From an uncultured Ignavibacteriaceae bacterium (GTDB lineage: Bacteria; Bacteroidota; Ignavibacteria; UBA10030), in the NCBI GenBank assembly GCA_964645575.1, contig CAZYAM010000003.1, positions 9,064 to 68,279 on the forward strand: a stretch of DNA of 59,216 nt, in the 5' to 3' direction. Every line of letters starts with the position of its first letter. The stretch's first letter is position 1. The position numbers and the translations under genes were made by a program. Shown here piece after piece: positions 20,609 to 40,308 of this stretch. A model generated the notes under the pieces. It saw only the letters and a list, made by a program, of their open reading frames with translations. It ran no database searches and was not told where the DNA came from.

Positions 20609-21004
20609 TTATAAAAACGCTTTAATTCCTTTCCTTAGTGTATTCAGCGCCAGATGAATGCATTCATATTTTGAAGGAGGAATACCTTCAAGAAATGTCA
20701 GGACATCCTGAAAATCAATTTGTGATGCTTCCTGCATGGTTTTGCCTTTTATCATTTCTGTTGCTGCTGATGCCACAGCTTCCAATCCTCTGCATCCTAT
20801 GTATTCATATTTAGCATCGATGATTCTTAATTTATCGCATTTTATATACAAAATCAGCGTATCGCCGCAATCCGATTGATGTTGAACGGTGATGTCGGAT
20901 TGTTCTATGGTGCCGAAATTCAATTGCTGATCGAGAAGACGCACGGCTTTCTCCGAATAACCGGCATTATTAAGCAGGACAAGTGGATTGTTTTTTTCTA
21001 TCAT
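20609..21004 (-). CDS. NifU N-terminal / IscU-like Fe-S scaffold
   Basis: NFG, CGD, GC and C-terminal C (three Cys), EMIKGKT. Confidence 0.82.
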   Translation of the reverse strand: MIEKNNPLVLLNNAGYSEKAVRLLDQQLNFGTIEQSDITVQHQSDCGDTLILYIKCDKLRIIDAKYEYIGCRGLEAVASAATEMIKGKTMQEASQIDFQDVLTFLEGIPPSKYECIHLALNTLRKGIKAFL

Positions 21005-21162
21005 CGGTTTACAACTATTCAGTTCAATTTAAAATTACTTTAAATGTCAATTGCTTCGCTGGCTTTTATACTGTTTTTTGGATTCAGTAATTATTTTAAT
21101 TCCTTTTTTCATACCTTCTTCGCAACGCAGTTTTTTCTGCTTGTTGCAAATATGATCATTTT

Positions 21163-21774
21163 CTAAATAATTCCTCGTTGCGAAATAATGATTTCTTGAA
21201 TATCACTTTTTGCCTGTTTTATTGAAAATCCCTTTTGTGTCAGATAAGCTCCGATATCCGACAGATTAATTGTGCCTTTGTCGTGCCGATTACCATCAAG
21301 CGCATGAATTTTATCTATGATCTTGAATCCTGCTTCTGTAAAATCAGCCAATATAAGTTTCCCGTTTGAAGAAAGAATCCGCGATAACTCATCAACGACT
21401 TGATAGGGTTTATGTAAATGGTGAAAGACGTTGACAGAAAAAATTATATCAAAGTTTTTATCGTTAAAACCAGTATGCTCTGCATTCTCTATTCTGAAAT
21501 CTACTAAGTCAGTAAGGCCAAAATATGCTGCATTGAGCTTTGCAAAACGTTGTTCTTCAGCTGATATATCAATAGTGATAAAGGTACAGCCTTTTTTTGC
21601 CAACGCTAACGTAAAGTGCCCTTTACCTGTTCCAGCTTCAAGAATTCTGCCTTTAAGAGGTTTCGCCTGTTCAACGATAAAATTCCTCTCCTTTTCAACA
21701 TCATAACCATAACTTTTAAAAAGCGCTATCCGTTCAGAGTATCGCTTATGATTATCTACTATCTCTTTGTTCAT
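21163..21774 (-). CDS. Class I SAM-dependent methyltransferase
   Basis: ILEAGTGKG, IDIS, VNVFHH, LADF. Confidence 0.88.
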   Translation of the reverse strand: MNKEIVDNHKRYSERIALFKSYGYDVEKERNFIVEQAKPLKGRILEAGTGKGHFTLALAKKGCTFITIDISAEEQRFAKLNAAYFGLTDLVDFRIENAEHTGFNDKNFDIIFSVNVFHHLHKPYQVVDELSRILSSNGKLILADFTEAGFKIIDKIHALDGNRHDKGTINLSDIGAYLTQKGFSIKQAKSDIQEIIISQRGII

Positions 21775-21786
21775 ATCAGGTTACTT

Positions 21787-22266
21787 TTACGACAAATCCT
21801 CCAGCAATGATTCTAAGTCATCTTCATGTTCAATTTCTTCTTTCATTATTTCGAGTGCGAGTTGATAGGTAACGACATCTTTCTCTTTTGTTGCATCAGC
21901 AAGCTTTTTGTATACTTCAATGGCGCACTGCTCGCCTTTGATATTCTGTTTTAAAAGGCTCTTTACAGACGGGTCTTCTGGTGCATCATAACCGCAATTC
22001 GACATTTTATACCAATCCTCAGGCTTTATGATAATGTTGCCGCCTAATTGAAGGATCCTCTCGGTGAGCATTTCAGCATGTTTGAGTTCTTCCGCAGCAT
22101 GTTCAGCAAGTTCTCCTGCAACTGCGCCGCGCATTTGGCCGCGTACAATTTTTGCGCCTGTCCAGTATTGGTAATAAGCAAGCCACTCATCGGCAAATGC
22201 TTTGTTCAACAGCGTAATGATATTCTTTACGTCTGCTCCTGCTAATTCTCTTGCTTTCGTTCCCAT
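21787..22266 (-). CDS. Ferritin-like DpsL/bacterioferritin-related protein
   Basis: AFADEWLAYYQYW, EELKHA, EQCAI and EEIEHE di-iron motifs. Confidence 0.9.
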   Translation of the reverse strand: MGTKARELAGADVKNIITLLNKAFADEWLAYYQYWTGAKIVRGQMRGAVAGELAEHAAEELKHAEMLTERILQLGGNIIIKPEDWYKMSNCGYDAPEDPSVKSLLKQNIKGEQCAIEVYKKLADATKEKDVVTYQLALEIMKEEIEHEDDLESLLEDLS

Positions 22267-22298
22267 GATATGCTCCTTTAATAAATTATGGTTTTGTT

Positions 22299-22677
22299 TT
22301 AAAAATTGCGGTTATGTTCATTTGCACATGCTTTGTAGCCGCTTGACTTTCCTTGAATAAAAAGATTCAACGCTTCCTCATAAAGAAGCCCGGGGGCAGT
22401 AATAACAGTAATGCCGTATTCAGCGAACTTAGCGATTGCCTTTTGTCCCATTCCTCCGGCGATGATTGTGTTGATATTAAATTTCTGCACATAACCGGGT
22501 ATCTCGCATGCACCGCTATGCTGGCCTGCTAATGGATTATCATGACTTTCTTTCTTCACCCACTTTATTTTGTTCATCTAGCTCACATACGTTAAATTTG
22601 GAACACCTGCCGAAGTGCTCGGCCACTTTTTCATGGGCTCCGTGTACTTCAATTGCTACTGCTAATCTGTGGTTCAT
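22299..22677 (-). pseudogene. NifB/NifX-like (COG1433) protein split by a +1 frameshift
   Basis: ATG 22677 reads MNHRLAVAIE..VAEHFGRCSKF; one extra G in the run at 22559-22561; the second half has IIAGGMGQKA. Span is 379 nt (3n+1). Confidence 0.85.
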
Positions 22678-22746
22678 GGTTATTTATTCCTTATTCCAAC
22701 TTACTAAAAAAAGCAAAAAGAATCATTATAAAACCTCAAATATGAT

Positions 22747-23121
22747 CTATAATTTCTTTGAACCGGAATAAACTGCTTCGACTCTAAGTGCAGCAACGGC
22801 ATGACCGGGGAATTTAGCCGGGTTCCATTTTTTCATATCATTAAAAATATTGCCGGTTTTGTGATACTCGATGCTTCCTTTTATCTGAAAAGATTTGTTG
22901 TCTTCGGTGAGAAAGAGGACCGATCCTTTGCTTCCGTTTAAAATATTATTGCGTGTTTTCCCAAAATGATTATCGGCAATAACGATTGTCTCCGAATCGT
23001 ATATGGAAACACATGTGGCATAAATAGAATTTGGAATGCTGTCGGAATCTACGGTGGAAAACACAATTGGACCTACGCGTTTATCCCATGATGTTATTAC
23101 TAACTCGGGTAGGACTGCCAT
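22747..23121 (-). CDS. Pyridoxamine 5'-phosphate oxidase-like FMN-binding protein
   Basis: IVIADNHFGKTRNNI, SFQIKGS, VEAVYSG. Confidence 0.85.
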   Translation of the reverse strand: MAVLPELVITSWDKRVGPIVFSTVDSDSIPNSIYATCVSIYDSETIVIADNHFGKTRNNILNGSKGSVLFLTEDNKSFQIKGSIEYHKTGNIFNDMKKWNPAKFPGHAVAALRVEAVYSGSKKL

Positions 23122-23206
23122 TTTACTTTTTCCTTTTTAATGCTTATTCAATTATAAAGGAGCGGATTGAATTATCGCACTAACCGATATATTTAGATCA
23201 CGAAAA

Positions 23207-23401
23207 TTAATTTCCCGATCTTCTTCCTTGTCCTTTGCGGAGGCCGCCGCCGCGAGGTTTCCCGCCGCGTCCGACTCCCTGGATTTCCTTTTGCTCGCCG
23301 GTCTGTTTTGTTGTTTGCGATTGAGAATTTCGGCACCGGCCTCTCCTCCCACCTGTCATCGGCCCTTGTCCCTTCGGACCGGTTCTATCTAAATTAGGCA
23401 T
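23207..23401 (-). CDS. DUF5320-like Gly/Arg-rich small protein
   Basis: AGGAGG RBS; MPNLDRTGPKGQGPMTGGRRGRC. Confidence 0.85.
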   Translation of the reverse strand: MPNLDRTGPKGQGPMTGGRRGRCRNSQSQTTKQTGEQKEIQGVGRGGKPRGGGLRKGQGRRSGN

Positions 23402-23410
23402 AACGACCTC

Positions 23411-24232
23411 CTATGATTGTTTGTTGAGTTGTGTTGTGATAAAATCGACAATAACCTTACATGCTTTAGATGCTTCAGAATCCGGTTTCTCTAAAATAAA
23501 TGGAGTACCATTATCACTGAGAGGACAGATATCTGTGTCTATGGGAATTGAGCCGAGAAATTGAATATTCATATCTTTTGCTAATTTCTTGCCCCCGTCT
23601 TTTCCAAAAAGGCTGATCTCTTTTCTGCAATGAGGACAAAGCAGCGTGGACATGTTTTCAACAACACCGATAGATGGAATATTTAGTTGTTTTGCCATGT
23701 TAACGGCACGTTCTGCATCGATGACAGAAACTTGCTGCGGAGTTGTAACAATGACAGCATAGTCGGGTTTCATTTGCTGGGCTATCGAGAGTATTTCATC
23801 TCCCGTGCCGGGAGGAAGATCTGCAATCAGATAGTCAAGCTCTTCCCATACAACATCGGCTAAGAATTGATTGATGACTTTTGAACGCATAGGCCCTCGC
23901 CAGATAAGCGGCTGTCCTTTCTTAAGAAGACCTGCCATCGAAATCATCTTTACGCCACCTTTTTCAAAGGGAATCATTTGATCGTTCAACATGATCGGAT
24001 CATCGTTCACACCAAGCATCTTAGGCACATTAGGACCTGTTACATCTGCATCGAGAATTCCTGTCGAGAATCCTTTCAATTTAAATCCGTAAGCAAGATT
24101 GACGGCTACGGTCGTTTTCCCGACACCGCCTTTACCGCTGAAAACAGCAACTCGATGTTTTATCTTTGAGATAGTCTCTGAAATTCGTTTCTTTTCTTCT
24201 TCGAATGCTTTTTGTTTTTCTTGTTCGTTCAT
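23411..24232 (-). CDS. mrp: Mrp/NBP35 (ApbC) Fe-S carrier ATPase
   Basis: SGKGGVGKTT, LDADVTGP, WRGP, DLPPGTGD, VTTPQ, ENMS and CPHC motifs. Confidence 0.95.
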   Translation of the reverse strand: MNEQEKQKAFEEEKKRISETISKIKHRVAVFSGKGGVGKTTVAVNLAYGFKLKGFSTGILDADVTGPNVPKMLGVNDDPIMLNDQMIPFEKGGVKMISMAGLLKKGQPLIWRGPMRSKVINQFLADVVWEELDYLIADLPPGTGDEILSIAQQMKPDYAVIVTTPQQVSVIDAERAVNMAKQLNIPSIGVVENMSTLLCPHCRKEISLFGKDGGKKLAKDMNIQFLGSIPIDTDICPLSDNGTPFILEKPDSEASKACKVIVDFITTQLNKQS

Positions 24233-24234: not shown

Positions 24235-25578
24235 TTATACCGTTTTAAACCATTTAACAATTGCGTTGATTGTTGCGTTGATTACCGGATAGGCAATTGG
24301 AGACGGTGTAAGCAAGGGATGCGTTCCTATCTGTAGTGTATTAATATCGGTGTCCGTCATTCTGTTCAAGATCATTACTGAAATCATGTTAATCAGTTCT
24401 CCCACCGAATCCCCGCCGTATATTTGTGCTCCCAGCAGTGTATGCGAGTACGTGGAAAAAATTAATTTAACATAAACTTCAGAAACCCCCTGAAGTTTGC
24501 CAGGGTGCCTGTCAACTGCCTTGGATATTCCGACAGTATATTCCAATCCTTTTTCTTTAGCACGTTTTTCCGTCATGCCGCTGACAGCAAAAGCGGTCTT
24601 CCCGATTTTTGTTGAAAATGTTCCCAGCACACCTTGATATTGTCTGATGACTCTGATAGAATAGAGATTTGAACCGACAAGTCTTCCTTCAGCCATAGCT
24701 GTTGAGGCGAGCATTATGTTTGAGAGATCGCCTGTGAAGAAATCGTATTTTATAGCACAATCGCCGATGGCAAAAACATCTTTTTCTGATGTTCGCAAAT
24801 AGTCGTCAACAGGCACCCCTTTTCCTTCTTGATATGGAATACCTATTTTCTTTACAAGTTCAAGATTCGGCTTATATCCTACAGAAATGACAACGAGATC
24901 GCACTCTATTCTTGAACCGTCGTCAAGTTCCACACCGCCGACAGAAGTCTCGCCTAATATTCTTTTAATCTTTTTTCCCGTTACGACAGTTCCACCTTGT
25001 CCGATGAGTATTTCTTTAACTTTTTCTCCGAATTCTTGATCCATGGTCGGTAACAGTTGAGGCATCATTTCAACGAGAGTGGTGTTCTTTTTCGCTTTTA
25101 CTAATTCGTCTGCGACTTCAACGCCAATGTAACCGCCGCCGACAATAACGATTTTTTGGGCTTTATGAACTGCTGTACGAAAACGTTCCAGATATTCTCT
25201 TTCTTTATGTACAAGATAGACCCCGTCTTTATTGTTTCCTTCAATATTGGGAAGCATGGCGACAGAACCGGTGGCTAATACAAGCTTTTCATAGTGGATT
25301 TCTTCACCGTTGGAAAGAACTATGGTATGATCTTTTCTATCAACAGCCTCGCCATTGATGATATCGATTTTATTTGTTGTCAATGGCACATCCGGTAAAA
25401 TATTTTCATCGACACCGTTTAAGGAGAACAAAACATAAGGTATTCCGCATGGAATCATCGGTTTCATGTCTTTGCGAATTAACGCGACATTTTTACTTGG
25501 ATAAGAATTTTTGGCAGATAACGCCGCAGATACTCCGGCAGGACCTCCGCCAATAATTACGACATCATATTGTTTCAT
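24235..25578 (-). CDS. FAD-dependent pyridine nucleotide-disulfide oxidoreductase (NADH oxidase / CoA-disulfide reductase family)
   Basis: GGGPAG, redox Cys in IPCGIPY, GGGYIGVE, AIGDC. Confidence 0.9.
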   Translation of the reverse strand: MKQYDVVIIGGGPAGVSAALSAKNSYPSKNVALIRKDMKPMIPCGIPYVLFSLNGVDENILPDVPLTTNKIDIINGEAVDRKDHTIVLSNGEEIHYEKLVLATGSVAMLPNIEGNNKDGVYLVHKEREYLERFRTAVHKAQKIVIVGGGYIGVEVADELVKAKKNTTLVEMMPQLLPTMDQEFGEKVKEILIGQGGTVVTGKKIKRILGETSVGGVELDDGSRIECDLVVISVGYKPNLELVKKIGIPYQEGKGVPVDDYLRTSEKDVFAIGDCAIKYDFFTGDLSNIMLASTAMAEGRLVGSNLYSIRVIRQYQGVLGTFSTKIGKTAFAVSGMTEKRAKEKGLEYTVGISKAVDRHPGKLQGVSEVYVKLIFSTYSHTLLGAQIYGGDSVGELINMISVMILNRMTDTDINTLQIGTHPLLTPSPIAYPVINATINAIVKWFKTV

Positions 25579-26450
25579 TATGGCACCTTTATTATTTGGT
25601 TAGACAATAGAACTCCGTATCCCAACGGATAACCGGAGCGCTCAGCGATAACTTCGCATTTAACTTTAAAAAGAAAATAGATCAGCCTCGTTTCATTCAT
25701 TAATGTTTCGAGATTTCCCTGGCCTTTTGCAATGACAATGTCGGCCTTCTTGTAAAGTTCAAGAAATTCCGGAGTACATTGCCGTAGATCGGTTCCGGCA
25801 ATCATACTTCCGCTTTCTACAACATTGCATATTTTATCTATACCGATCCGCTTTGCATCTTCAAGTGTTATGTCATTGAGAATCGGTTTCGACCGTACCG
25901 CGAAAATAACTTTTTTTTGCATAAGTTCAGATAGAAGAAATTTATCGAATAGTGCTTCCTCGTAGTTGTCGCCGATGTAGAGTATGATATCGGCTTTTTT
26001 TAAATCGTCTTTAAAATGGGGAAGCGAAGAGAGGTCAATAGTATTTGAAGCTATTCGATTGACTTCATATTCGATATCAAAACGATGGTTAGCGCCAAGG
26101 TCGATGATATTGCCGATGATGGCAATTCTTAGAGCAGTATCGAGCTTGTCTTTCGAGCCTTCCATCATTGTCCTAAAAAACGGGATATATTTCTCCGCTG
26201 TTTTTCTATTCTCTTCTTTTATTCTTTCGTAAGGGTTGACCACTCCCAGGTGTTTTTCAACGATGGACTGTATTGTCAAAGAGAACATCGGCGCGTTAAA
26301 ATTTCCATCAACAGCATCGACAGATTTGCAGACTTCTTTGACTATCTTAAGTTGAAGTTCCTTGTCTTCCTTATTGAAGAGCCGGGCTGCATTGTATGCT
26401 TGATTTATAATACAGGGAATACATCGTGGATCAAAAAACATGGTCTTCAC
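25578..26450 (-). CDS. DUF89/ARMT1-like metal-dependent damage-control phosphatase
   Basis: CIPC, NPYERIK, GNIIDLG, DN, NDIT and AKGQGNLE motifs. Confidence 0.88.
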   Translation of the reverse strand: MKTMFFDPRCIPCIINQAYNAARLFNKEDKELQLKIVKEVCKSVDAVDGNFNAPMFSLTIQSIVEKHLGVVNPYERIKEENRKTAEKYIPFFRTMMEGSKDKLDTALRIAIIGNIIDLGANHRFDIEYEVNRIASNTIDLSSLPHFKDDLKKADIILYIGDNYEEALFDKFLLSELMQKKVIFAVRSKPILNDITLEDAKRIGIDKICNVVESGSMIAGTDLRQCTPEFLELYKKADIVIAKGQGNLETLMNETRLIYFLFKVKCEVIAERSGYPLGYGVLLSNQIIKVP

Positions 26451-26482: not shown

Positions 26483-26962
26483 CTATAATATACGTTTTCT
26501 TTTGCGCTTGCCTTTTTTAAAATGCATATCAAGCCAGCCGTTTCTTATATGATCTCTTGAATCAAAATGAGCTACATAGGGTTTGATATCTAATAACGGA
26601 GTGCCGTCAAGTATATCGACTTCTGAAAATACGATAATATTATCCTTCACCTTTTCCAATTTCACAATGGAAAATCCGATATGATTGGGCCTGTGAGGGC
26701 TTCTTATTGCAAATATCCCGTGTTCCTTATCCTCAAGGAACGGTTTCCCAACAAGTATCTCTTCTTTAGAGCGGTTAAAATGGTAAATTAAAATGAGGTG
26801 CGAAAATCCCTCAATGTCTTTAAGTCCCTCTTGATACCGTTTAAATAATTCTATCCGGCCCTTCACATGCTTTTTGAAAGTACCCTGAATAGGCATACCC
26901 TTTGGTTTTTTATAAGGCGTGTAAATTATTCCGATGGGTTTAAGATTGATTTCTTTTTTCAT
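26483..26962 (-). CDS. tsaA: TsaA/TrmO-family SAM-binding protein (tRNA m6t6A methyltransferase-like)
   Basis: LKPIGII, GIFAIRSPHRPNHIG, DILDGTPLLDIKPY. Confidence 0.9.
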   Translation of the reverse strand: MKKEINLKPIGIIYTPYKKPKGMPIQGTFKKHVKGRIELFKRYQEGLKDIEGFSHLILIYHFNRSKEEILVGKPFLEDKEHGIFAIRSPHRPNHIGFSIVKLEKVKDNIIVFSEVDILDGTPLLDIKPYVAHFDSRDHIRNGWLDMHFKKGKRKRKRIL

Positions 26963-26963
26963 A

Positions 26964-29496: not shown

Positions 29497-30312
29497 TTAC
29501 TTTTTTAATGATGATTTATATATTATGAACCAGCCGGCAGATCCTATAGCTATCAGCCCAAGAGATATCAACTGCGCTTCACTTAATCCAAAAGCAATCC
29601 GCGGATTGATGCGGATGAACTCTATTGTAAACCTTTCAATTCCGGCCAATATCAAATAGAACATGAATAACATTCCTGTCGGCAAAGGCTTTTTTCGGAT
29701 GGACCAAAGGAATAAAAACATTACTCCGCAAATCAGAAATTCGTACACAGGAGTCGGATGGCATGGAGTGTTATCCGGAACAATACCTCCTGGAAATTGA
29801 CTGCAGATTTCCGGAAAACCTCTGAAGGCTGCCGAAGGCGGGTATGTGCCGTTCGAATAATCAGTTCCCCAGGGAAGTGTCGTCGGGAAACCATAATCGC
29901 CGTCACCTGAAAGATGACATCCGATACGTGCAATGCCATATGCAAGAATCAAAGCAGGCGAAATTGCATCGGCCACAGTAAAGAAAGTGATTTCCTTTTT
30001 CTTTGAATAAAGATATATTGAGAACGTTGCGAGAATGAAACCGCCGTAAAATGTTAATCCGCCTGGATTAAATATCATGCCTATTGGATCCGCCGTGAAT
30101 TCGCGCCAGTATTCTAACAAGTAAAGAATTTTTGATCCTGCAATACCCGAAACCAGTGCTATTAATGTGATATTATTCGCTATATTCGGATCCAGTTTCC
30201 GGCGTTTGAATTCGCTGACGAAAAGATAACTTCCGACAATGAAACCGGTTGCAAGCATTAAACCGTAGCTATAAACTGTAAAGGGGCCGATTTGAAAGAG
30301 TCTGGGACACAT
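29497..30312 (-). CDS. lgt: Prolipoprotein diacylglyceryl transferase
   Basis: YSYGLM, GGLTFYGG, ARIGCHLSGD, HPTPVYE, RFTIEFIR. Confidence 0.92.
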   Translation of the reverse strand: MCPRLFQIGPFTVYSYGLMLATGFIVGSYLFVSEFKRRKLDPNIANNITLIALVSGIAGSKILYLLEYWREFTADPIGMIFNPGGLTFYGGFILATFSIYLYSKKKEITFFTVADAISPALILAYGIARIGCHLSGDGDYGFPTTLPWGTDYSNGTYPPSAAFRGFPEICSQFPGGIVPDNTPCHPTPVYEFLICGVMFLFLWSIRKKPLPTGMLFMFYLILAGIERFTIEFIRINPRIAFGLSEAQLISLGLIAIGSAGWFIIYKSSLKK

Positions 30313-33314: not shown

Positions 33315-33544
33315 CTGTCTATCTCAACAAAAATTTTTTTTGCCATTCCGAATCCGACAGCAACTTGCATATTGTCTATTTCTATCGTCTGTGGACCGCG
33401 CCAGAAATGAGAACTTACCTTGGTTATTCTCTTCCCGGGCCTTATTCCTATGCTTTGCAGTTTTCTTATGAAGCCGCGACCGCCCAGAATCTCTTTTACC
33501 GTGCCGGTTTCTCCCGGCTGCATTTGTGTTAAATCTGTCTTCAT
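33305..33544 (-). CDS. feoA: FeoA family protein
   Basis: RKLQSIGIRPG, GP, VAVGFGMAKKI; overlaps the feoB start. Confidence 0.92.
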   Translation of the reverse strand: MKTDLTQMQPGETGTVKEILGGRGFIRKLQSIGIRPGKRITKVSSHFWRGPQTIEIDNMQVAVGFGMAKKIFVEIDRCK

Positions 33545-33546
33545 TT

Positions 33547-33756
33547 TCAAAAACAGGTAGGACATGTTCCTGTAGAGCAGCTTGGTCCAGAAGAAGAACT
33601 GTCTCCAGAACCTCCAACGCTAAATGTTGAAAATATTCTTTCGATATTTTCACTGTTGCATTTTTCGCATTTAAGCTCTTGTTTTTCTGAAGTTACCCCT
33701 ATCAACAAATCGAATTTCTCACCACAATCTTTACAAATATATGTATACATAGGCAT
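33547..33756 (-). CDS. FmdB-family zinc ribbon protein
   Basis: MPMYTYICKDCG...CEKCNS...RIFS plus a Cys-rich tail CSTGTCPTC. Confidence 0.9.
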   Translation of the reverse strand: MPMYTYICKDCGEKFDLLIGVTSEKQELKCEKCNSENIERIFSTFSVGGSGDSSSSGPSCSTGTCPTCF

Positions 33757-33795: not shown

Positions 33796-34110
33796 CTAAA
33801 CATGTTGCTTGATCGTAGTTTCCAGTTCGGATTTAGGAAGCGCACCTACAACCTTGTCCACGACTTTATCATCTTTAAAAATTGCTAAAGTTGGAATACC
33901 CATTATTCCATAACGAGATGCGGTATTAGGAGCTTCATCTACATTTAACTTATATACTTTCAATTTACCTTTATATTCCTCGGCGATTTGCTTGATTATC
34001 GGCGCCACCATAAGGCAAGGGGCGCACCACTCTGCCCAAAAGTCTACCAAAACAGGTAAATCCGATTCTAAAACCTCTTGTTTAAAATTATTATCATTTA
34101 CATTAATCAT
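33796..34110 (-). CDS. trxA: Thioredoxin
   Basis: [18 protein letters not shown]. Confidence 0.93.
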
Positions 34111-34120: not shown

Positions 34121-34765
34121 TTATATCTCTGCGATTACTGTGATGCCTGCCTTTACTTTATCACCTGTTTTAACTTTTAAGTGTAAATAATTAGGTAAAG
34201 AGAGATCAACCTGTGAACCCAATTTAATCATCCCTATCCGCTGTCCCTGAATAACTTTATCACCGACATTAACCCAGCATACTATCCTTCTTGCAAGAAT
34301 CCCTGCAATCTGCTTGATTTCGAAGACTCCATCCATCGTTAATATTCTGATTACATTCTGTTCATTCTCAATTTCTGCCTGCTTAAAAAATGCCGGTAAA
34401 AATTTCCCCGTTTTATATTCTATTACCTCTACCGAACCCGGGAACGGCGCTCTTTGAACATGCATGTCTAATGGCGACATAAAAATCTGTATAATCTGCC
34501 TCTTGTTATCTTTTTTGATTTCAATAATTTTTCCATCAGCAGGCGAGAGAACGTGGTTATCGTTGATTAATATTTTCCTTTCAGGGTCGCGGTAGAAATA
34601 CAGAGTGAACAGAGACAGTATTAAAAGCACCCAGGCAAGAAGATTAAAGACTAAATAAAGCCACCCAAACAGAAAGCAAGATATTATATAACAGAAGAGA
34701 GCAAGGAACAAGCAGATACCCGCTGTTAGCACTCCTTCTTTAACTATTGGCAATTTCATATTCAT
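34121..34765 (-). CDS. psd: Phosphatidylserine decarboxylase proenzyme
   Basis: [24 protein letters not shown] and the self-cleavage motif KLGS. Confidence 0.92.
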
Positions 34766-34843: not shown

Positions 34844-35149
34844 TTACTTAGTATTATCAGCTTCGCTTAAAATTTGGTTCAGTTTATCAGCATGAATGAA
34901 ATCTATGACTTTCATATCAATTTCTTTTATACCTTTTATCTGTGTAATTGCATTTCTAATATCAAAGGCAAGCCGAAAACCTAATGGACAAGTCGGCATG
35001 GATGGTCTAAATATCAGGATTACTCCGTTATTTTCGATTATTTCTAATTTTTTAATTAATCTCATGCTTAAAACATCGATGCCTGTTTCCGGATCGATAA
35101 CTTTGCTCAATTTATCCTGTATTATTTCTTTGAAACTAATTGAGTCCAT
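34844..35149 (-). CDS. DUF59 / SufT / PaaD-like Fe-S assembly protein
   Basis: VIDPETGIDV and PTCP motifs. Confidence 0.85.
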   Translation of the reverse strand: MDSISFKEIIQDKLSKVIDPETGIDVLSMRLIKKLEIIENNGVILIFRPSMPTCPLGFRLAFDIRNAITQIKGIKEIDMKVIDFIHADKLNQILSEADNTK

Positions 35150-36020
35150 TTTGAATAACTTCCCAGATGTTTCTAATTTGTTGCGAGACTTCTCCGTCGG
35201 AATATTCTATAACAGTTTTTTTATTTACCATTGCTTCTATTATTGCGGTATCATATTTGATTTTACCTGCCAGCGCAACTCCGTTTTTTCGACAATATCT
35301 TTCTATTTCTTCGGCCATTTCCGTATTCAGGTCGTATTTATTGACAACTACAAATGTTTTTACATTAAAATGCTGCGCTAATTCTATTACTCTTACCATA
35401 TCATGTAAACCTGATAAAGTGGGCTCTGTCACTATTAAAGCGCAGTCAATTCCTGAAATCGAGGAAATAACCGGGCAGCCTATTCCGGGAGAACCATCAA
35501 CGATAATGATGTCGCGATTTTCCTTCTCGGCTATCAGTTTTGCATTCTGTTTTACTATGGTCACTAATTTACCCGAATTTTCTTCCGCAACGCCTAATTT
35601 AGCATGAACGAAGGGGCCATATTGAGTGTCTGATATAAACCACTCGCCTGAAATACATTCTTCCATCTTTATTGCTTCTTGGGGACAAATATAACTGCAG
35701 ACTCCACAGCCTTCACAAGAAATAGGGTCAACTGTTACCGTCGATTGCTGATTGCTTATGGATGATTGAGTAATGGCGTCAAACCGGCACACTTCAAGAC
35801 ACATGCCGCATTGATTACATCTCTCGGTATCGATGACAGCGGTCTTGCCGCCTTTAAATTCATGTCTCTCCAGAATTTTTGGATTGAGTAAAAGATGCAA
35901 ATCTGCTGCATCTACATCACAATCAGCCATAACTTTGTTTTTCACTAAACTGGCAAAAGCAGCGGTAATAATCGTCTTGCCCGTTCCACCTTTTCCGCTT
36001 ATAACTACAATCTGTTTCAT
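35136..36020 (-). CDS. MinD-superfamily P-loop ATPase with inserted 2x[4Fe-4S] ferredoxin (COG1149), copy 1
   Basis: SGKGGTGKT, DCDVDAADL, CNQCGMC..C and CEGCGVC..CP, ENSGKLV, DGSPGIGCP. Confidence 0.93.
   Translation of the reverse strand: MKQIVVISGKGGTGKTIITAAFASLVKNKVMADCDVDAADLHLLLNPKILERHEFKGGKTAVIDTERCNQCGMCLEVCRFDAITQSSISNQQSTVTVDPISCEGCGVCSYICPQEAIKMEECISGEWFISDTQYGPFVHAKLGVAEENSGKLVTIVKQNAKLIAEKENRDIIIVDGSPGIGCPVISSISGIDCALIVTEPTLSGLHDMVRVIELAQHFNVKTFVVVNKYDLNTEMAEEIERYCRKNGVALAGKIKYDTAIIEAMVNKKTVIEYSDGEVSQQIRNIWEVIQNGLN
35741..35770 (-). repeat. Degenerate heptamer repeat forming an in-frame insertion (about SSISNQQ) in the ferredoxin loop
   Basis: Minus strand actcaat-catccat-aagcaat-cagcaat-cgacggt. 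Confidence 0.5.
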
Positions 36021-36394
36021 GAACCTCTCTTCAATAAATAATCGGCCAGCGCCTTGTGTAAAGTGGTCACTGCCAAAATTGCGCAATGAACATTAGAACC
36101 TAAAAAATCGTGCAGTTTATCTATAACATCTGCCGGAGATAATTTTAAGGCATTGTTTATAGTTTGTCCTTTCACCATTTCAGTTGCAATTGATCCGCAT
36201 GCTGTTGTGATTCTGCATCCGTCGGTATAGAACAAAACCTCGGAAATTTTTCCATCAGTTATTTTTATGTGCATCTCCATAGTATCACCACATTGGCCTT
36301 TCACCAGAGCGGCACCGTCCGGCTTGGCTATTTTTCCGAAATTCTTCGGCTGGGAAAAATGTTCAACTATTTTCTCTGAAGATATTTTTTTCAT
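36017..36394 (-). CDS. NifU N-terminal / IscU-like Fe-S scaffold, copy 2
   Basis: HFSQPKNFG, CGD, DGC and HCA motifs. Confidence 0.88.
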   Translation of the reverse strand: MKKISSEKIVEHFSQPKNFGKIAKPDGAALVKGQCGDTMEMHIKITDGKISEVLFYTDGCRITTACGSIATEMVKGQTINNALKLSPADVIDKLHDFLGSNVHCAILAVTTLHKALADYLLKRGS

Positions 36395-36433: not shown

Positions 36434-37354
36434 TTATGATTTGAATTTTTTAATATCGTTAAATAACCGTACAAATTTCGTTTTAAATTCAGGAATAAAT
36501 TCAACCATAGGAATTCCTTTTGAATAAGATTCGGCTATTTTTCTGTCAAAAGGTATTCTCATTAAAACCGGAATATTTTCTTTATTGCAGTACTTATCAA
36601 CCTCTTGATACCCTGCCTGCCCTGATGCTGTCGGAATATCTGTTCGGTTTATTACCACACCAAAAGCAATGTTCAATTTTCTAATAACTTCTACTGCGAG
36701 AATGAGATCGTTCATGCCAAACGGAGTGGGTTCGGTTACGAGAATACAATAATCGCTGCCTTTGATGGACCCGATTACCGGGCAGGATGTGCCGGGTGGA
36801 GCATCGATGATGACCACTTTATTGTTTGTAATATTTTTCTTAACTGCTTTAATAAGGGGCGGCGACATCGCTTCACCGATATTTAACTTTCCACCAACAA
36901 ACTCGATTTTTCCAACTCTGCCGATTTGAATATTTCCTATTTCCCGGCCTACTTCCTCAATTGCTTTCTCGGGACAGAGTAAACTACAGCCGCCGCAGCT
37001 GTGACAGAGTTCAGGAAAAATTAAAACCTTTCCGCCGGATGCGGATCCCTGCTCGTCCGTCGGGCGAGTGTTTTGGTTGAAATTTCTTATCACAGCAATA
37101 GCGTTGTAAGCACACACTTCCTGACATTTACCACAGTAGGTGCATCTCTCTTCGATTACTTTAGGTACGGGAATGCTTATTGGTAGAGTTTTTGTAATAT
37201 TCGGTTTTAAGAAGATATGCGCGTTTGGCTCTTCTACATCGCAGTCAACAATCTGTATCGCACCTATATCGGCGGATGACAAGGAAAGGGCTAAATTTAC
37301 CGCTATGGTAGTTTTTCCCGTTCCACCTTTTCCACTGGCAATTGATATAATCAT
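36434..37354 (-). CDS. MinD-superfamily P-loop ATPase with inserted ferredoxin (COG1149), copy 2
   Basis: SGKGGTGKTT, DCDVEEPNAH, two ferredoxin Cys motifs, DAPPGTSCP, TEPTPFG. Confidence 0.93.
   Translation of the reverse strand: MIISIASGKGGTGKTTIAVNLALSLSSADIGAIQIVDCDVEEPNAHIFLKPNITKTLPISIPVPKVIEERCTYCGKCQEVCAYNAIAVIRNFNQNTRPTDEQGSASGGKVLIFPELCHSCGGCSLLCPEKAIEEVGREIGNIQIGRVGKIEFVGGKLNIGEAMSPPLIKAVKKNITNNKVVIIDAPPGTSCPVIGSIKGSDYCILVTEPTPFGMNDLILAVEVIRKLNIAFGVVINRTDIPTASGQAGYQEVDKYCNKENIPVLMRIPFDRKIAESYSKGIPMVEFIPEFKTKFVRLFNDIKKFKS
36614..36634 (-). repeat. 21-nt REP-like in-frame insertion encoding PTASGQA
   Basis: CCGACAGCATCAGGGCAGGCA inside NRTDI[...]GYQEV; shares GGCAGGCAGG with the intergenic hairpin at 37534. 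Confidence 0.6.
37031..37068. repeat. Two stacked REP-like hairpins inserted in frame (..TRPTDEQGSASGG..)
   Basis: TCCGC-cggat-GCGGA and CTCGTCC-gtc-GGGCGAG inside the ferredoxin loop of ATPase copy 2. Confidence 0.6.
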
Positions 37355-37533
37355 TTTTCTTGTTTATTCTTGACAGCAAACATTTCGAGAGATTTATAAA
37401 AAATATTTTCGTTTGAACATATATCATCTGTTCAGGCACTATGAAAACGATATTAAAAAGAATCTCAGGTCATTCCTATCGGATTATTTCGAAATCGATA
37501 TATATATTATACCGCAATATGCACGATAAATTG

Positions 37534-37563
37534 CCCGCCTGCCAGAGCGAAACGGCAGGCAGG
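37534..37563. repeat. Intergenic REP-like hairpin
   Basis: CCCGCCTGCC-agagcgaaac-GGCAGGCAGG, 9 of 10 pairs. Confidence 0.65.
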
Positions 37564-37601
37564 AGTTCAGCATGATAAAAATCCTATTTTTGAGATAGGT
37601 C

Positions 37602-38126
37602 TTAGTTGCTATCATTATATTGATAATCGAGTCTTTTTAAAGCTAATGCTTCGTTTGGACAAGTATTGACACAAACGCCGCAGCCAGAACATTTTTCTGA
37701 ATCGATTTTTGCTGTGTAATTTAACGTGATTGCCCCTTGATCGCAAACATCAATGCATGTTCCGCAGCCCGTGCATTTATTTTCATCGATAAAAGCTTTA
37801 ACAGATACTTTTTCCCCGGTTATATTTTGTTTCCCCTTGCTTATGCTCAATTCATCGATCCTGTTAAGGATTGAGTCTATATGATGCTGAAGTGTTTGAG
37901 CTTGTTGTTTCAACATATCCAATTCTTGATCTTCTGGAATAGGTTGTTGTGGATCTTGCAGTGATTGTGGCTGAACTGTAGATGGTGTCCAACTCTCGGA
38001 CAACTGCCTTTGTACCATCCCCTGTCCCGTTCCACGGCCCATACCTCTTGCAAATCTACGATTTCTACCTCTTCCTGTTCCCGGACCATTGCCCCATAAT
38101 GGTCCTTTTCCATTACCACCCGGCAT
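37602..38126 (-). CDS. DUF5320-like N-terminus + coiled coil + 2x[4Fe-4S] ferredoxin fusion
   Basis: AGGAGG RBS; MPGGNGKGPLWGNGPGTGRGR; CTGCGTCIDVC and CSGCGVCVNTCP. Confidence 0.88.
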   Translation of the reverse strand: MPGGNGKGPLWGNGPGTGRGRNRRFARGMGRGTGQGMVQRQLSESWTPSTVQPQSLQDPQQPIPEDQELDMLKQQAQTLQHHIDSILNRIDELSISKGKQNITGEKVSVKAFIDENKCTGCGTCIDVCDQGAITLNYTAKIDSEKCSGCGVCVNTCPNEALALKRLDYQYNDSN

Positions 38127-38127
38127 T

Positions 38128-38379
38128 TTAATTACCTCCTTGTTGATTATCATTCTTACTGTTAAGGGCTTTTTTCTCGTCTTGTTTCTTTGAAGAAAAG
38201 AGTTTTACAATTGAAGCGAGCAATGTAACAGCACTTCCTATCAATGCTATTACACCTTGTGATTTGTTTTCATTCTCGGATATTGAATCCTTTTTTACAG
38301 TACTGTCAAATTGTTGACGCCTGTATCCTGTCCCTGGCCCGCTGCCCCATGGGGGCCCTTTTCCATCTCTATCTGGCAT
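38128..38379 (-). CDS. Small protein with DUF5320-like N-terminal motif and a hydrophobic helix
   Basis: MPDRDGKGPPWGSGPGTG; VIALIGSAVTLLASIVKLF. Confidence 0.75.
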   Translation of the reverse strand: MPDRDGKGPPWGSGPGTGYRRQQFDSTVKKDSISENENKSQGVIALIGSAVTLLASIVKLFSSKKQDEKKALNSKNDNQQGGN

Positions 38380-38477
38380 TTAATACCTACTTTTCTTAAA
38401 GTTACCTACTTAAAAAGTTATTATCCTTTTATCAGAATCATGTCTTCAGGATTTGGCCACCTGCTTTAATTGTACTT

Positions 38478-38843
38478 TTAAGACATGCCAAATTTTGAAT
38501 TTGTGCTTGGGCCTTGAGTTGGTTTAAACTCGCCTTTTTTGTATTTTTCTACCGCTTCCTTAACACTGCCGGATATGCCGCTTATTATTTCGATGCCTGC
38601 TTGTTGAAGTGATTGAAAAGCATTTGGTCCTACGTTTCCACTCAGAACTGCTTTGACTTGCTTGTTTGCCATGAGCTGACCAGCCTGAACACCCGCTCCG
38701 CCTGTAGCATCAATACTTGGATTATTAATCGCTTCAAATTTCATCGTCTCGGTATCGACGACAATGAAATAATTACACCTTCCAAACCGTGGGTCAACTT
38801 GCGAATCCAGATTGTTATTCTGTGCCGTTACACAAATATTCAT
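38478..38843 (-). CDS. NifB/NifX-like (COG1433; MTH1175/orange protein family) protein
   Basis: VDPRFGRCNYF, GGAGVQAGQ, GNVGPNAF; GAGGAG RBS. Confidence 0.92.
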   Translation of the reverse strand: MNICVTAQNNNLDSQVDPRFGRCNYFIVVDTETMKFEAINNPSIDATGGAGVQAGQLMANKQVKAVLSGNVGPNAFQSLQQAGIEIISGISGSVKEAVEKYKKGEFKPTQGPSTNSKFGMS

Positions 38844-38859
38844 GTTATAACACTCCTCT

Positions 38860-39258
38860 TCAATGGTTATGTTCATCCGGATTAGAATGATCAGATCGGA
38901 TTTTATCTAAGCCGTATCCCTTTCCCACGCCGGGCTTACAGAGACTTTCAGCACTTTCTAAAGCATCTTTTTTAATTTTCTCTATCACTTCGTCTATTCT
39001 ACCGCTTATACCGACGATTGTTTGTATCCCATATTCATTAAAAAAACCAACGGCTCTCATCCCCATACCGCCGCAAACTATACACTCTACACATTTCTGG
39101 TGTAAAAATTTTGGTATGAGCCCAAGTTCGTGTCCCGGATTTTCGATAATCTCTTTCTTTGCAATCGTGCCGTTTTCAATGTTCACAATTGTAAAATTAG
39201 GACACCTGCCGAAATGGGCAGATACAAAATCTCCATCTGTGGATATAGCAATTCGCAT
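38860..39258 (-). CDS. NifB/NifX-like (COG1433) protein
   Basis: VSAHFGRCPNF, NPGH, CGGMG; His-containing tail. Confidence 0.92.
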   Translation of the reverse strand: MRIAISTDGDFVSAHFGRCPNFTIVNIENGTIAKKEIIENPGHELGLIPKFLHQKCVECIVCGGMGMRAVGFFNEYGIQTIVGISGRIDEVIEKIKKDALESAESLCKPGVGKGYGLDKIRSDHSNPDEHNH

Positions 39259-39331
39259 ATTCTTTTCCTTACAAGAATTAATAATTAGAGATAGGGGAGA
39301 AATCTATGTAATTTTCCCCTATCCTAAATGG

Positions 39332-39718
39332 TTATTTATCCGACCCGGCTGTTCTTTCGGTCTTCTCTAAGGTCTTGATGCGATTCAGAATACCATCAAG
39401 CTGGGTTTTTAAAGTATCAGCTTCCTGCTTGAGCATATCCATCTCCTGTTTTGGAGTCATGTTTGGAGTGTAAGGATAAGCGTCAGCAGGAAAAGCATAA
39501 TCGGTTCCTGCCCAGCCTGGGAAACCGGCAGCCCAATACCGATGTCTCCAGCCACGTCCAAACCCACCATGACCCCAGCCTCGACCAAATCCAAAGCCCA
39601 ACCCTCTGCCTGGAATTGGATTCATATAACCGGGTGCAGGATAACCCGCACAGTAGCCTGCTGCGCGACCGGTCATTGGACCAGCCCCACTTGGACCAGT
39701 TCTATCTCCTCTTGGCAT
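39332..39718 (-). CDS. DUF5320 family protein
   Basis: MPRGDRTGPSGAGPMTGRAAGYCAG, Gly/Arg/aromatic middle, C-terminal coiled coil. Confidence 0.9.
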   Translation of the reverse strand: MPRGDRTGPSGAGPMTGRAAGYCAGYPAPGYMNPIPGRGLGFGFGRGWGHGGFGRGWRHRYWAAGFPGWAGTDYAFPADAYPYTPNMTPKQEMDMLKQEADTLKTQLDGILNRIKTLEKTERTAGSDK

Positions 39719-39776
39719 TTTATTTATCTCCTTTCTTATTGTTAATTATCTTTATATCGTTAATAGGGAAAAAATG

Positions 39777-40247
39777 TTATTTCTTTTGGCATTTATTGCA
39801 CAGCCCATAAAATTGAATAAGGTGATTTGTGATTTTAAAGTTAAATTTTTTAGATAATCCTTTTTCTGTTTGGCCAAGTAATTCTTTCTCTTCTTCGGCA
39901 AAATCTGTGTAATCAATAATTTTACCGCAATCTGTACACAATAAATGATGATGATGTTGTTTTCCTTGGAATCCTTCGGCTAACTCGTACCGGGCTCTTT
40001 TATCTCCGAAGTCGAATTTCAAGATAAAGCCCATTTCTACGAGCAACTCCAGTGTCCGGTATATGGTTGTTAAGCCGATGGCCGGATATGTTTTATGGAC
40101 TGCCATATATATTTCTTCAGCGCTTAAATGCTCGGTCGTTTTACTTAAGAGATCGAGGATTGCTTCTCTCGGAATAGTTAATCTATAACCATAACCCCTA
40201 AATTTTCCGTGCCACCAGCGTGATCCCATTTTCATTCCTCTTGGCAT
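39777..40247 (-). CDS. fur: Fur family transcriptional repressor
   Basis: RLTIPR, HLSAEEI, TIYRTL, HHHHLLCTDCG, C-terminal CNKC. Confidence 0.95.
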   Translation of the reverse strand: MPRGMKMGSRWWHGKFRGYGYRLTIPREAILDLLSKTTEHLSAEEIYMAVHKTYPAIGLTTIYRTLELLVEMGFILKFDFGDKRARYELAEGFQGKQHHHHLLCTDCGKIIDYTDFAEEEKELLGQTEKGLSKKFNFKITNHLIQFYGLCNKCQKK

Positions 40248-40260
40248 ATGATGCCTTATT

Positions 40261-40279
40261 GATAATGGTTATCATTATC
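40261..40279. promoter_or_regulatory. Fur box
   Basis: GATAATGGTTATCATTATC matches the classical GATAATGATAATCATTATC at 17 of 19 positions, 13 nt upstream of the fur ATG. Confidence 0.85.
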
Positions 40280-40280
40280 A

Positions 40281-40308
40281 AATATAATATAATAATATAA
40301 TTTGTCAA
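40281..40308 (-). promoter_or_regulatory. Sigma70 promoter TTGACA-N16-TATATT of the fur operon
   Basis: The -10 box abuts the Fur box. Confidence 0.6.

Follow-up and report, generated by a model that had tools for sequence, protein, structure and literature searches.

Gene content of the array

Within a stretch of 59,216 nucleotides from an uncultured Ignavibacteriaceae bacterium (the window, meaning the whole 59-kb stretch analysed) we examined a same-strand gene array that is headed by a fur gene and occupies 40247 to 20609 of the minus strand, comprising 28 reading frames in ~20 kb. An earlier note, made from the letters alone, had read this array as one Fur-controlled run of ~30 genes with a core of the orange-protein (ORP) type, importing iron and building or storing a specialised metal-sulfur cluster. 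Gene identities were assigned by Pfam and NCBIfam profile scans of the window proteins, and all of the genes that had been named were recovered, in the named order and on the minus strand. The first part of the array is made up of fur, DUF5320, NifX1, NifX2, an 83-aa tagged protein, a DUF5320::2x[4Fe-4S] ferredoxin, ATPase1, NifU1, ATPase2 and DUF59. These are followed by psd, trx, an FmdB zinc ribbon, feoA, feoB, a radical S-adenosylmethionine (SAM) gene, lgt, a TonB receptor and a DsrE remnant. The last part consists of TrmO/TsaA, DUF89/ARMT1, a CoA-disulfide reductase (CoADR)-like gene, Mrp, a short DUF5320, a PNPOx-like gene, NifX3, a Dps-like gene, a methyltransferase and NifU2. The window's own proteins are found only on short metagenome contigs, the closest named record being a metagenome-assembled genome labelled 'Bacteroidetes bacterium'. 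The features at the head of the array are as follows.

40281 to 40308, minus strand: promoter-like site TTGACA-16-TATATT (consensus match only, 11/12)
40261 to 40279, unstranded: Fur box GATAATGGTTATCATTATC, 18/19 against the 19-mer Fur consensus
39777 to 40247, minus strand: fur (Pfam FUR, 1.3e-32)
39332 to 39718, minus strand: DUF5320 protein of 128 aa (Pfam DUF5320, 8.7e-29)
38860 to 39258, minus strand: NifX1 (Nitro_FeMo-Co, 1.2e-19)
38478 to 38843, minus strand: NifX2, orange-protein/MTH1175-type, Orp8-like (Nitro_FeMo-Co, 7.4e-26)
38128 to 38379, minus strand: 83-aa tagged protein with a DUF5320-like N-terminal tag (MPDRDGKGPPWGSGPGTG) and one hydrophobic helix
37602 to 38126, minus strand: DUF5320::2x[4Fe-4S] ferredoxin with tag, cationic stretch and coiled coil (Fer4, 3.1e-16; DUF5320, 4.2e-10)
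37355 to 37601, minus strand: spacer of 247 nt with a GC-rich hairpin and then TATAAT, a candidate internal attenuator and promoter
36434 to 37354, minus strand: ATPase1, a P-loop ATPase of the MinD/SIMIBI class that contains a 2x[4Fe-4S] ferredoxin insert, Orp3/Orp4-like
36017 to 36394, minus strand: NifU1, U-type scaffold with three conserved Cys (NifU_N, 2.8e-29)
35136 to 36020, minus strand: ATPase2, paralog of ATPase1 (294 aa as called in L001)
34844 to 35149, minus strand: DUF59/SufT-like iron-sulfur (Fe-S) assembly protein (FeS_assembly_P, 2.4e-11)

A Fur box and a dedicated Fur subfamily

As had been proposed, fur is preceded by a promoter-like site and a Fur box. The letters TATATTTG at the promoter-like site also fit the Bacteroidota -7 motif TAnnTTTG. 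The Fur box holds the 7-1-7 unit TGATAAC-C-ATTATCA and sits directly downstream of the -10 element, which, judged from the sequence, is a position for repression. Nowhere else in the 59 kb, the 20 kb of the array included, does a match have fewer than 5 mismatches, which is the chance level, and shuffled sequence gave 0 matches at ≤3 mismatches. In L007, the locus of the nearest relative, a box with 1 mismatch lies at the equivalent place. Neither a sigma54 -24/-12 motif was found in the window nor a Sigma54_activat protein, the feature of the activator OrpR, among the scanned window ORFs, in keeping with the claim that the core is under Fur and not sigma54. Comparison of the intergenic gaps gave no convincing shared regulatory repeats, and the likeness between the fur promoter and the region upstream of prx is short and too near the prx ATG.

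The window Fur starts with an extension (MPRG..WWHGKFRGYGYR) and contains an HHHH motif as well as two CxxC pairs; HHHH, CTDC and CNKC are invariant across the subfamily alignment. Against NCBIfam it scores highest with the Bacillus-type Fur model, at 133 bits and under the cut-off, followed by PerR at 94 bits. A database search at E≤1e-25 puts 1470 proteins in the subfamily, with 70-75% identity between phyla. Furs at the heads of other arrays match the window Fur at 1e-49 to 1e-97, whereas the generic Furs found beside some Dehalococcoidia/Anaerolineales clusters match at only 1e-13 to 1e-19. The extension precedes the DNA-binding domain and has the consensus MPRxxxxGPxWWHGRFRGCGYRxT, in which W11, W12, G18, G20, Y21 and R22 are invariant. 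Among the 120 best subfamily members, 89 contain the motif WWHG.F.G.GYR and 16 begin with MPxx[DN]G[TK]GP, the latter being the tag start of both the DUF5320-ferredoxin (MPGGNGKGP..) and the 83-aa protein (MPDRDGKGP..). By alignment, the regulator belongs to a dedicated Fur subfamily whose N-terminal extension resembles the tag of the DUF5320 proteins.

The ORP-type core

The claim of an ORP-type core was substantiated for the two ATPases, for NifX2 and for Mrp, which lies further downstream. Both ATPases match CbiA/ParA and two Fer4 stretches, the arrangement of Orp3 and Orp4, and their pairing is conserved across the 80 loci sampled below. ATPase1 has >8000 database homologs and no close solved structure, its best match being MinD at 4e-13. 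The start of ATPase2 at 36020 overlaps the stop of NifU1 by 4 nt. NifU1 matches NifU_clost at 1.5e-31, below cut-off; together with NifU2 at the end of the array it makes two NifU_N proteins of the U-type scaffold kind, with the motifs of the three conserved Cys visible. The best model match of Mrp is MrpORP (positions 2-254 of 365, 314 bits, below the 450 cut-off). NifX1 is of the type of the C-terminal ('Di-Nase') domain of MrpORP, matching model positions 265-359 at 2.9e-25, and its best PDB match is TM1816 (1T3V, 2e-15). Mrp lacks a NifX-type domain whilst NifX1 matches that very part of the model, and MrpORP is therefore split here and not fused. NifX2 is a single-domain protein of the Orp8 kind; among solved structures it comes closest to the D. 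gigas ORP (2WFB, 1.1e-21, residues 2-113), and it also matches MTH1175 at 6e-20.

Since MinD proteins are the closest solved relatives of the ATPases, the pair might be thought to act in cell division or positioning, with the Fe-S genes merely maturing it. The Desulfovibrio ORP complex has indeed been put forward as cell-division related, with MrpORP at the cell pole (PMC6345978, PMC3897727). Against this stand the two [4Fe-4S] motifs of each ATPase, their partners (NifX, NifU, Mrp and DUF59), Fur control and Feo linkage without an evident tie to division, and the lack of division genes among the scanned window proteins. We consider a division role extremely improbable.

DUF5320 proteins and their link to the NifX domain

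Four window proteins carry the tag MPxxDxxGPxGxGPxTGR. In the 128-aa DUF5320 protein the N-terminal tag MPRGDRTGPSGAGPMTGR leads into a cationic stretch rich in Gly, Arg, Trp, Phe and Tyr (residues 1-88 have a pI of 9.9, with 22 Gly and 16 aromatic residues) and then into a C-terminal coiled coil. The 83-aa protein has no Pfam match and is conserved at 74% in L007. The DUF5320-ferredoxin starts at MPGG in L001 and has 174 aa; a longer ORF of 183 aa occurs in L004/L005. A 56-nt direct repeat of 75% identity (38073-38128 and 38326-38381) codes for the tags of the 83-aa protein and the DUF5320-ferredoxin, and since it encodes both N-terminal tags we read it as a local tandem duplication of the tag. 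The fourth protein, a short DUF5320, lies towards the end of the array.

NifX2 is without a tail in the window, and a tail-like segment is found on the separate DUF5320 proteins. Elsewhere the two come together: 8 of the sampled loci encode a fusion protein that joins a NifX2-type domain to a (GMGR)n stretch and a DUF5320 coiled coil, and in one of them a ferredoxin is added. These gene fusions argue that DUF5320 is functionally linked to the orange-protein-type NifX domain. The searchable literature gave no paper describing DUF5320.

A further fusion was seen at the end of a Fur-headed array of another lineage, L095, where a CDF cation-efflux transporter is fused to a NifX domain (18142-18474, off the locus end), again tying the NifX domain to metal trafficking.

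Conservation across other genomes

Conservation of the neighbourhood was the test that the earlier note had set for itself. We sampled loci by an ATPase-alignment scan with one genome per GTDB species, giving 80 loci among the matches listed (47-60% identity) from Omnitrophota, WOR-3, Clostridia, Planctomycetota, Dehalococcoidia, Zixibacteria, Desulfobacterota, Ignavibacteria, Bathyarchaeia, methanogens and others. The window proteins were searched against all reading frames of these loci, and families were counted within 10 kb of the ATPase pair.

NifX: 75/80 loci
Mrp: 43-44/80 loci (43 at E≤1e-30)
DUF5320: 40/80 loci
NifU: 31-32/80 loci
FmdB: 29/80 loci
radical SAM, same family: 24/80 loci, all at E≤1e-21 (17 with the GPVxSRRLG motif)
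DUF89: 16/80 loci (14 at E≤1e-30)
fur: 12/80 loci
methyltransferase: 7-9/80 loci
CoADR-like: 7-9/80 loci
TrmO: 7/80 loci
feoB: 7/80 loci
lgt: 1/80 loci
psd, TonB receptor, PNPOx and Dps: 0/80 loci each

The order fur>DUF5320>NifX>NifX>...ATPase>ATPase is kept in 9/80 loci of seven differently named lineages: Omnitrophota (three loci), WOR-3, Clostridia, Planctomycetales, Dehalococcoidales, Syntrophaceae and Puniceicoccaceae, with Fur boxes at the equivalent place. A reciprocal test that started from three distant members of the Fur subfamily found the same array in 3/3 loci. The combination is thus conserved, the Fur-headed order being recovered from both anchors. Fur-box-like sites (≤4 mismatches) were sought in 1.06 Mb; 11 of the 18 sites fall at the starts of fur or DUF5320 genes (200 nt upstream plus 20 nt into the gene), which make up 1.1% of the sequence (binomial p = 1e-17).

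Individual loci differ in compactness, close relatives retaining the core and losing passengers. The nearest relative, L007 (89% ATPase identity), keeps the order without DUF59, trx, FmdB, radical SAM and the receptor. L009 (75% identity) has a compact 17-gene array, fur-DUF5320-NifX-Fdx-ATPase-ATPase-DUF59-feoAB-rSAM-DUF89-x-CGGC-DUF5320-NifX-Dps-MT-NifU, where Fdx is ferredoxin, rSAM radical SAM and MT methyltransferase; like that of the window it finishes with NifU. In L095, one of the three loci reached from fur, one tight run reads fur-DUF5320-x-NifX-NifX-Fdx-DUF5320-MT-ATPase-x-ATPase-Mrp-rSAM-DUF89-NifU-FmdB-MBL, ending in a metallo-beta-lactamase (MBL) gene. L011 (71% identity) has fur-feoAB, sigma54 and a PAS activator, and then NifX-DUF5320-NifX-x-ATPase-ATPase-trx-DnaJ-MT-RACo-rSAM-FmdB-Mrp. 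By these counts Mrp, NifU, FmdB, the COG0731-like radical SAM, DUF89 and the methyltransferase recurrently join the Fur-headed unit, and psd, lgt, the TonB receptor and PNPOx are not part of the wider cluster family. A CGGC-domain protein, absent from the window, was observed inside or beside Fur-headed arrays at two unrelated loci (L093, 7320-7763; L009, 13210-13653).

An OrpR-like PAS/sigma54 activator lies near the ATPases in ~13/80 loci, mostly in Desulfobacterota and Planctomycetota. It and fur never occur together within the 80 loci, and the two therefore look like alternative controllers of one module; L011, which was found separately, has both. Comparative placement thus suggests that Fur control is a common alternative to OrpR across phyla and not peculiar to the source genome. 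The searchable literature gave no paper linking Fur to ORP-type clusters. In L011 (2570-5073) fur-feoAB and an rpoN/PAS-activator pair stand upstream of ORP-type genes, a possible intermediate of the two control modes.

The regulator might instead be PerR-like or another redox sensor, and the array a set for repair of and protection from oxidative damage to Fe-S. Thioredoxin, the CoADR-like enzyme and the Dps-like protein in the array and a 1-Cys peroxiredoxin just downstream would suit this, as would the second place of PerR among the NCBIfam matches, the replacement of fur by an OrpR-like PAS enhancer-binding protein in ~13/80 loci, and the control of the Desulfovibrio orp operons by OrpR, which senses redox potential (PMC8359166). 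On the other hand, Fur is the best model match, and feoAB accompanies fur in the window, in L007 and in L009, and lies right beside it in L011, L017, L024 and L039. Moreover, B. subtilis half-sites read TGATAA for Fur and TTATAA for PerR, and those of the window box are of the Fur type, TGATAA. A redox sensor is, in our view, very unlikely.

Downstream genes, passengers and decay

From psd onwards the array holds the following features.

34121 to 34765, minus strand: psd, phosphatidylserine decarboxylase, a housekeeping passenger (Pfam/NCBIfam scan)
33796 to 34110, minus strand: thioredoxin, also in 4/80 loci and L011
33547 to 33765, minus strand: FmdB-family zinc ribbon with a Ser/Cys-rich tail (Zn_ribbon_8, 1.3e-12; TIGR02605 above cut-off)
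33305 to 33565, minus strand: feoA, ferrous iron import
31599 to 33314, minus strand: feoB, ferrous iron import
30479 to 31580, minus strand: COG0731-like radical SAM protein of ~366 aa with the FGPVPSRRLGxSLG motif and CxxxCxxC, frameshifted near 31363
29497 to 30312, minus strand: lgt, prolipoprotein diacylglyceryl transferase, a housekeeping passenger
27130 to 29445, minus strand: TonB-dependent receptor with a CarboxypepD_reg domain, a lineage-specific insertion absent in L007
26963 to 27129, minus strand: DsrE remnant, C-terminal third only, in two frames (direct reading against the L007 DsrE)
26483 to 26962, minus strand: TrmO/TsaA-family protein (TrmO_N, 5.9e-42; TIGR00104 above cut-off)
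25578 to 26450, minus strand: DUF89/ARMT1-like metal-dependent phosphatase (Pfam/NCBIfam scan)
24235 to 25578, minus strand: pyridine nucleotide-disulfide oxidoreductase (Pyr_redox_2), closest to CoADR (224 bits against a cut-off of 579)
23411 to 24232, minus strand: Mrp/NBP35 Fe-S carrier of 273 aa with a CPHC motif (ParA, 8.9e-96)
23207 to 23401, minus strand: short DUF5320 of 64 aa, tag plus Arg/Gly-rich tail, pI 12, with a homolog in L009
22747 to 23121, minus strand: PNPOx-like FMN-binding protein, not a conserved member
22299 to 22677, minus strand: NifX3, frameshifted near 22565, 84% identical to the intact L009 protein
21787 to 22266, minus strand: Dps-like ferritin (DpsL/archaeal DPS type), conserved in L009
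21163 to 21774, minus strand: class I SAM methyltransferase, also in L009, L011, L093 and L095
20609 to 21004, minus strand: NifU2, second U-type scaffold (NifU_N, 8.9e-24) and end of the array

Several of these genes are passengers or are decayed. Only L007, the closest relative, has psd in the vicinity of the ATPases. That relative has lgt and then an intact DsrE, without a receptor, and the TonB receptor is therefore best read as an insertion that truncated DsrE. Read in three frames, the remnant, which had been recognised before, yields KIYACGSCIKLREQET and STMKDIYKIIGESERVITF, each ending at a stop and both corresponding to the last third of the intact L007 protein; a tblastn search with the L007 DsrE did not score it as significant. 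A role for the receptor as the siderophore importer of the system was considered and dropped, the receptor being missing from all relatives. The radical SAM gene and NifX3, both on the minus strand, are each split by a single-base frameshift, within 31340-31420 and 22555-22580 respectively, either real decay or assembly error. As it stands in the assembly, the window would be a scattered, partly decayed copy of the cluster, with three decayed genes and the unrelated passengers psd, lgt, TonB receptor and PNPOx.

The radical SAM protein has no match to a specific NCBIfam family, including the NifB model, and no PDB sequence match. Its AF2 model, a confident one (pLDDT 88), matched only generic radical SAM folds. 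A NifB-like role was considered and set aside on this modelled structure, NifB fitting no better than TYW1, viperin or RlmN (TM 0.45-0.5). Outside the array, at a distance of 17 kb on the upstream side, a second radical SAM gene of the same COG0731-like family (48699-49637, minus strand) shows 28-31% identity and keeps the N-terminal FGPVPSRRLGxSLG.

Upstream of the array lie genes for an arginine decarboxylase, two metallo-beta-lactamase-fold proteins and an alkaline phosphatase and a decayed 4HBT gene, a flank that is syntenic with L007. Because this flank is unrelated and syntenic, the left boundary of the array at the fur promoter is sound. The 4HBT-type thioesterase gene (40359-40738, minus strand), which adjoins the fur promoter on its upstream side, is a pseudogene in which several stops interrupt the frame; L007 has it intact. 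The wider window is rich in metal genes, with a CDF efflux protein (12529-13464, minus strand), ZnuA plus an ABC-3 permease (51024-52660, minus strand), and a P-type ATPase with an HMA domain (54803-57070, plus strand). Weak AT-rich Fur/Zur-like boxes were seen at 51848-52072, at the ZnuA/ABC-3 genes. An ArsP_2 permease and the 1-Cys peroxiredoxin (18857-20490, minus strand) stand just downstream of the array.

Transcription units

Many genes of the array overlap or nearly abut, as had been noted: 15/27 junctions overlap or are separated by ≤32 nt. One apparently wide junction proved narrow, since the radical SAM gene is split by the frameshift near 31363, which makes the feoB-radical SAM gap 18 nt and not 181. 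No convincing intrinsic terminator was found in the minus-strand intergenic gaps, again as the earlier note had it; the best candidate (27179-27161) lies within the 3′ end of the TonB receptor gene. Four gaps measure 158-247 nt (247, 166, 167 and 158), and the 167-nt gap is the decayed DsrE gene, leaving three. The GC-rich hairpin and TATAAT of the 247-nt spacer are kept in L007; in L009 the spacer is absent and the genes abut. Its fold z-score is only -1.7, which is unexceptional, and because Rfam matched a tRNA alone in the whole window, the spacer is without a known RNA element.

The minus-strand genes extend past the array on both sides, from 18857 to 54469, with monotone GC skew. As the same-strand run covers 18.9-54.5 kb, co-transcription cannot be read from shared orientation. 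From this one might argue that only the head (fur to about DUF59) is functional as a unit and that the downstream Fe-S genes are independent operons, placed on the same strand by replication-strand bias. The interleaving of the unrelated psd, lgt, TonB receptor and PNPOx genes would agree with this, and Mrp, NifU, trx and Dps are common genes. However, unrelated phyla repeatedly have Mrp, NifU, the radical SAM family, DUF89, FmdB and the methyltransferase at most 10 kb from the ATPase pair, and in L009 and L095 these downstream families are contiguous with the head. We regard a head-only system as unlikely.

At the opposite extreme stands the full proposal of the earlier note, in which a single operon of all ~28 genes, controlled by Fur, would serve to import iron and to build or store a metal-sulfur cluster of a specialised, non-standard kind. 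The close junctions, the lack of a clear intergenic terminator and the tight packing of most conserved members behind fur in the compact L009 and L095 are in its favour. Nonetheless, the array has a single Fur box, the gaps described above, the first of them with a conserved hairpin and then TATAAT, and lineage-specific passengers such as the TonB receptor, whose recent insertion destroyed DsrE. Moreover, psd and lgt, both housekeeping, would be expected to need expression at plentiful iron. For these reasons one operon is improbable, and the same-strand run to 54 kb makes orientation uninformative. As for the specialised cluster, radical SAM, NifX and NifH-class ATPases loosely recall nitrogenase cofactor assembly, and NifB is among the top folds of the radical SAM model. 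Yet the radical SAM is no closer to NifB than to TYW1, viperin or RlmN and has no NifB model match, and no NifEN/NifDK-like scaffold or target is present among the scanned window proteins. A specialised heterometal cluster is not indicated, the parts pointing to ordinary Fe-S or FeS-polymer handling, and we hold this combined reading to be distinctly unlikely.

A single Fur-controlled 28-gene transcript being unlikely, the 20 kb most likely comprise several transcription units, of which only the first one or two would be directly under Fur. Likely units, as predicted from spacing and content, are fur to NifX2; the 83-aa gene plus the DUF5320-ferredoxin; ATPase1 to DUF59; psd to radical SAM; lgt plus the receptor; tsaA to the short DUF5320; PNPOx; NifX3 to the methyltransferase; and NifU2. 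Read-through between units is possible.

A proposed role in iron-sulfur capture and delivery

The reading that we regard as reasonably probable is that the system serves capture and delivery of Fe-S, derepressed by iron starvation, and is a Fur-headed, unusually spread-out ORP-type module. When Fe2+ is scarce, Fur would leave its box and the head module would be made along with FeoAB. Imported Fe2+ and sulfide would then be captured as a protein-bound Fe-S species on the NifX2-type domain, aided by DUF5320, which would supply a cationic, Gly/Arg/aromatic tail as a separate protein and whose coiled coil would allow oligomerisation. The ATPase pair, as a heterodimer, may act with the ferredoxin in ATP-driven, reductive assembly or release, and NifU, Mrp and DUF59 would hand [4Fe-4S] clusters to client proteins. 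Thioredoxin, the CoADR-like enzyme, DpsL and the downstream peroxiredoxin may protect the process or supply reducing power.

The role given to DUF5320 draws on IssA of Pyrococcus furiosus, in which an IPR003731 domain modelled on MTH1175 is joined to a cationic, aromatic, Gly-rich tail that was proposed to wrap anionic thioferrate (PMC5524996). Besides storing Fe and S, IssA is able to rebuild ferredoxin clusters, and an uncharacterised mesophilic 'IssX' clade has Gly-rich tails (PMC5524996). In Methanococcus voltae grown on pyrite (FeS2) as opposed to soluble Fe(II)/HS-, IssA-clade proteins and FeoAB rise together (PMC9431491). As to delivery, MrpORP of Desulfovibrio has a bridging [4Fe-4S] cluster that is transferred to Orp3/Orp4 and to aconitase (PMC6345978). 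DUF5320 looks like the IssA tail in composition, as set against the published description.

Several points weigh against capture and delivery. The main tension concerns expression: IssA is produced when iron and sulfide are abundant (PMC5524996), and a Fur-repressed system would be made in the opposite condition. Capture and delivery is favoured over bulk storage for this very reason and is to that extent an adjustment to fit the conflict, pure storage fitting poorly. Fur control is itself inferred from one box and comparative placement, and the resemblance to the IssA tail comes from composition and the paper's description. Among the scanned window proteins there is no sulfur donor in the form of a cysteine desulfurase, an absence that fits, weakly, with direct use of sulfide. 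Radical SAM, the methyltransferase, DUF89 and TrmO have no place in the proposed mechanism. Moreover, with radical SAM and NifX3 both frameshifted, this copy may be partly decayed or mis-assembled.

A bolder form of the capture-and-delivery reading, which we put forward as doubtful, is that the combination of tagged Fur, DUF5320, NifX and ATPase is a widespread, undescribed system of anaerobes that handles Fe-S as a protein-bound mineral or polymer. DUF5320 would be a separate IssA-like tail, the ferredoxin-ATPase pair would load or unload the bound Fe-S, and the dedicated Fur, bearing the N-terminal tag of its cargo proteins, would thereby read the state of the system beyond free Fe2+.

Comparison with known systems

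In E. coli, feoAB and the suf Fe-S assembly operon are members of the Fur-repressed iron-starvation regulon. The window resembles such regulons in a box that overlaps the promoter, in the combination of iron import with Fe-S assembly and in the predicted autoregulation of fur. It differs in having a Fur of the subfamily with the N-terminal extension, ORP-type components in place of SufBCD, and no cysteine desulfurase in the window. With nitrogenase cofactor maturation (NifB, NifX/NafY, NifH, NifU) it shares a NifX domain, a NifH-class P-loop ATPase, a U-type scaffold and a radical SAM protein; by contrast, there are no NifEN/NifDK or nif genes in the window and the radical SAM is COG0731-like. 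As the earlier note had stated, neither a nitrogenase nor a hydrogenase is in view among the scanned proteins of the 59-kb window, and the same scans gave no Aminotran_5 protein and hence no cysteine desulfurase, the scaffold's partner in ISC, SUF and NIF. By gene content the module is not a member of any of the three.

The ORP cluster of Desulfovibrio vulgaris Hildenborough (orp3-4-5/orpR/orp7-8-9; PMC6345978, PMC8359166) is likewise built on paired MinD-type ATPases with two [4Fe-4S] motifs each and a single-domain NifX/orange protein, the window's Mrp P-loop domain is nearest MrpORP, and both systems are restricted to anaerobes. There, however, a sigma54 promoter and OrpR control two divergent operons, whereas here a Fur box and a dedicated Fur head genes in one direction, and MrpORP is fused to its NifX-type domain there and separate here. 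The extras of the window are the four DUF5320-tag proteins, two NifU, DUF59, FmdB, radical SAM, DUF89, the methyltransferase, FeoAB and DpsL. Judged by its genes, the module shares core members with ORP and departs from it in lacking a fused MrpORP and sigma54/OrpR control.

IssA/'IssX' (PMC5524996), compared by description only, appears to share with the window an MTH1175-type NifX (IPR003731) domain and a cationic Gly/Arg/aromatic-rich, probably disordered segment, and the fusion of NifX and tail in the 8 other loci is alike. In IssA the tail is on the same polypeptide, whereas the window has a separate DUF5320 with tag and coiled coil, and ATPases and scaffolds stand alongside. Expression is at high iron and sulfide for IssA and predicted at low iron here.

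Significance

The ORP complex spans anaerobic bacteria and archaea, and over ten years of study in a single Desulfovibrio model have not defined its function. The interest of the present locus comes less from this window's copy than from the general pattern that it exposes. In many phyla an ORP module appears to be wired to a dedicated Fur and its box, often with Feo, which offers iron starvation as a testable trigger. The comparison also enlarges the list of conserved parts by Mrp, NifU, FmdB, one particular radical SAM family, DUF89 and the methyltransferase, and gene fusions connect the orphan family DUF5320 to the NifX domain. Were the IssA-like reading true, the ORP and thioferrate-storage literatures would be joined, and the system would bear on how anaerobes acquire iron and ration it for Fe-S proteins in sulfidic, iron-poor settings without the classical cysteine-desulfurase route.

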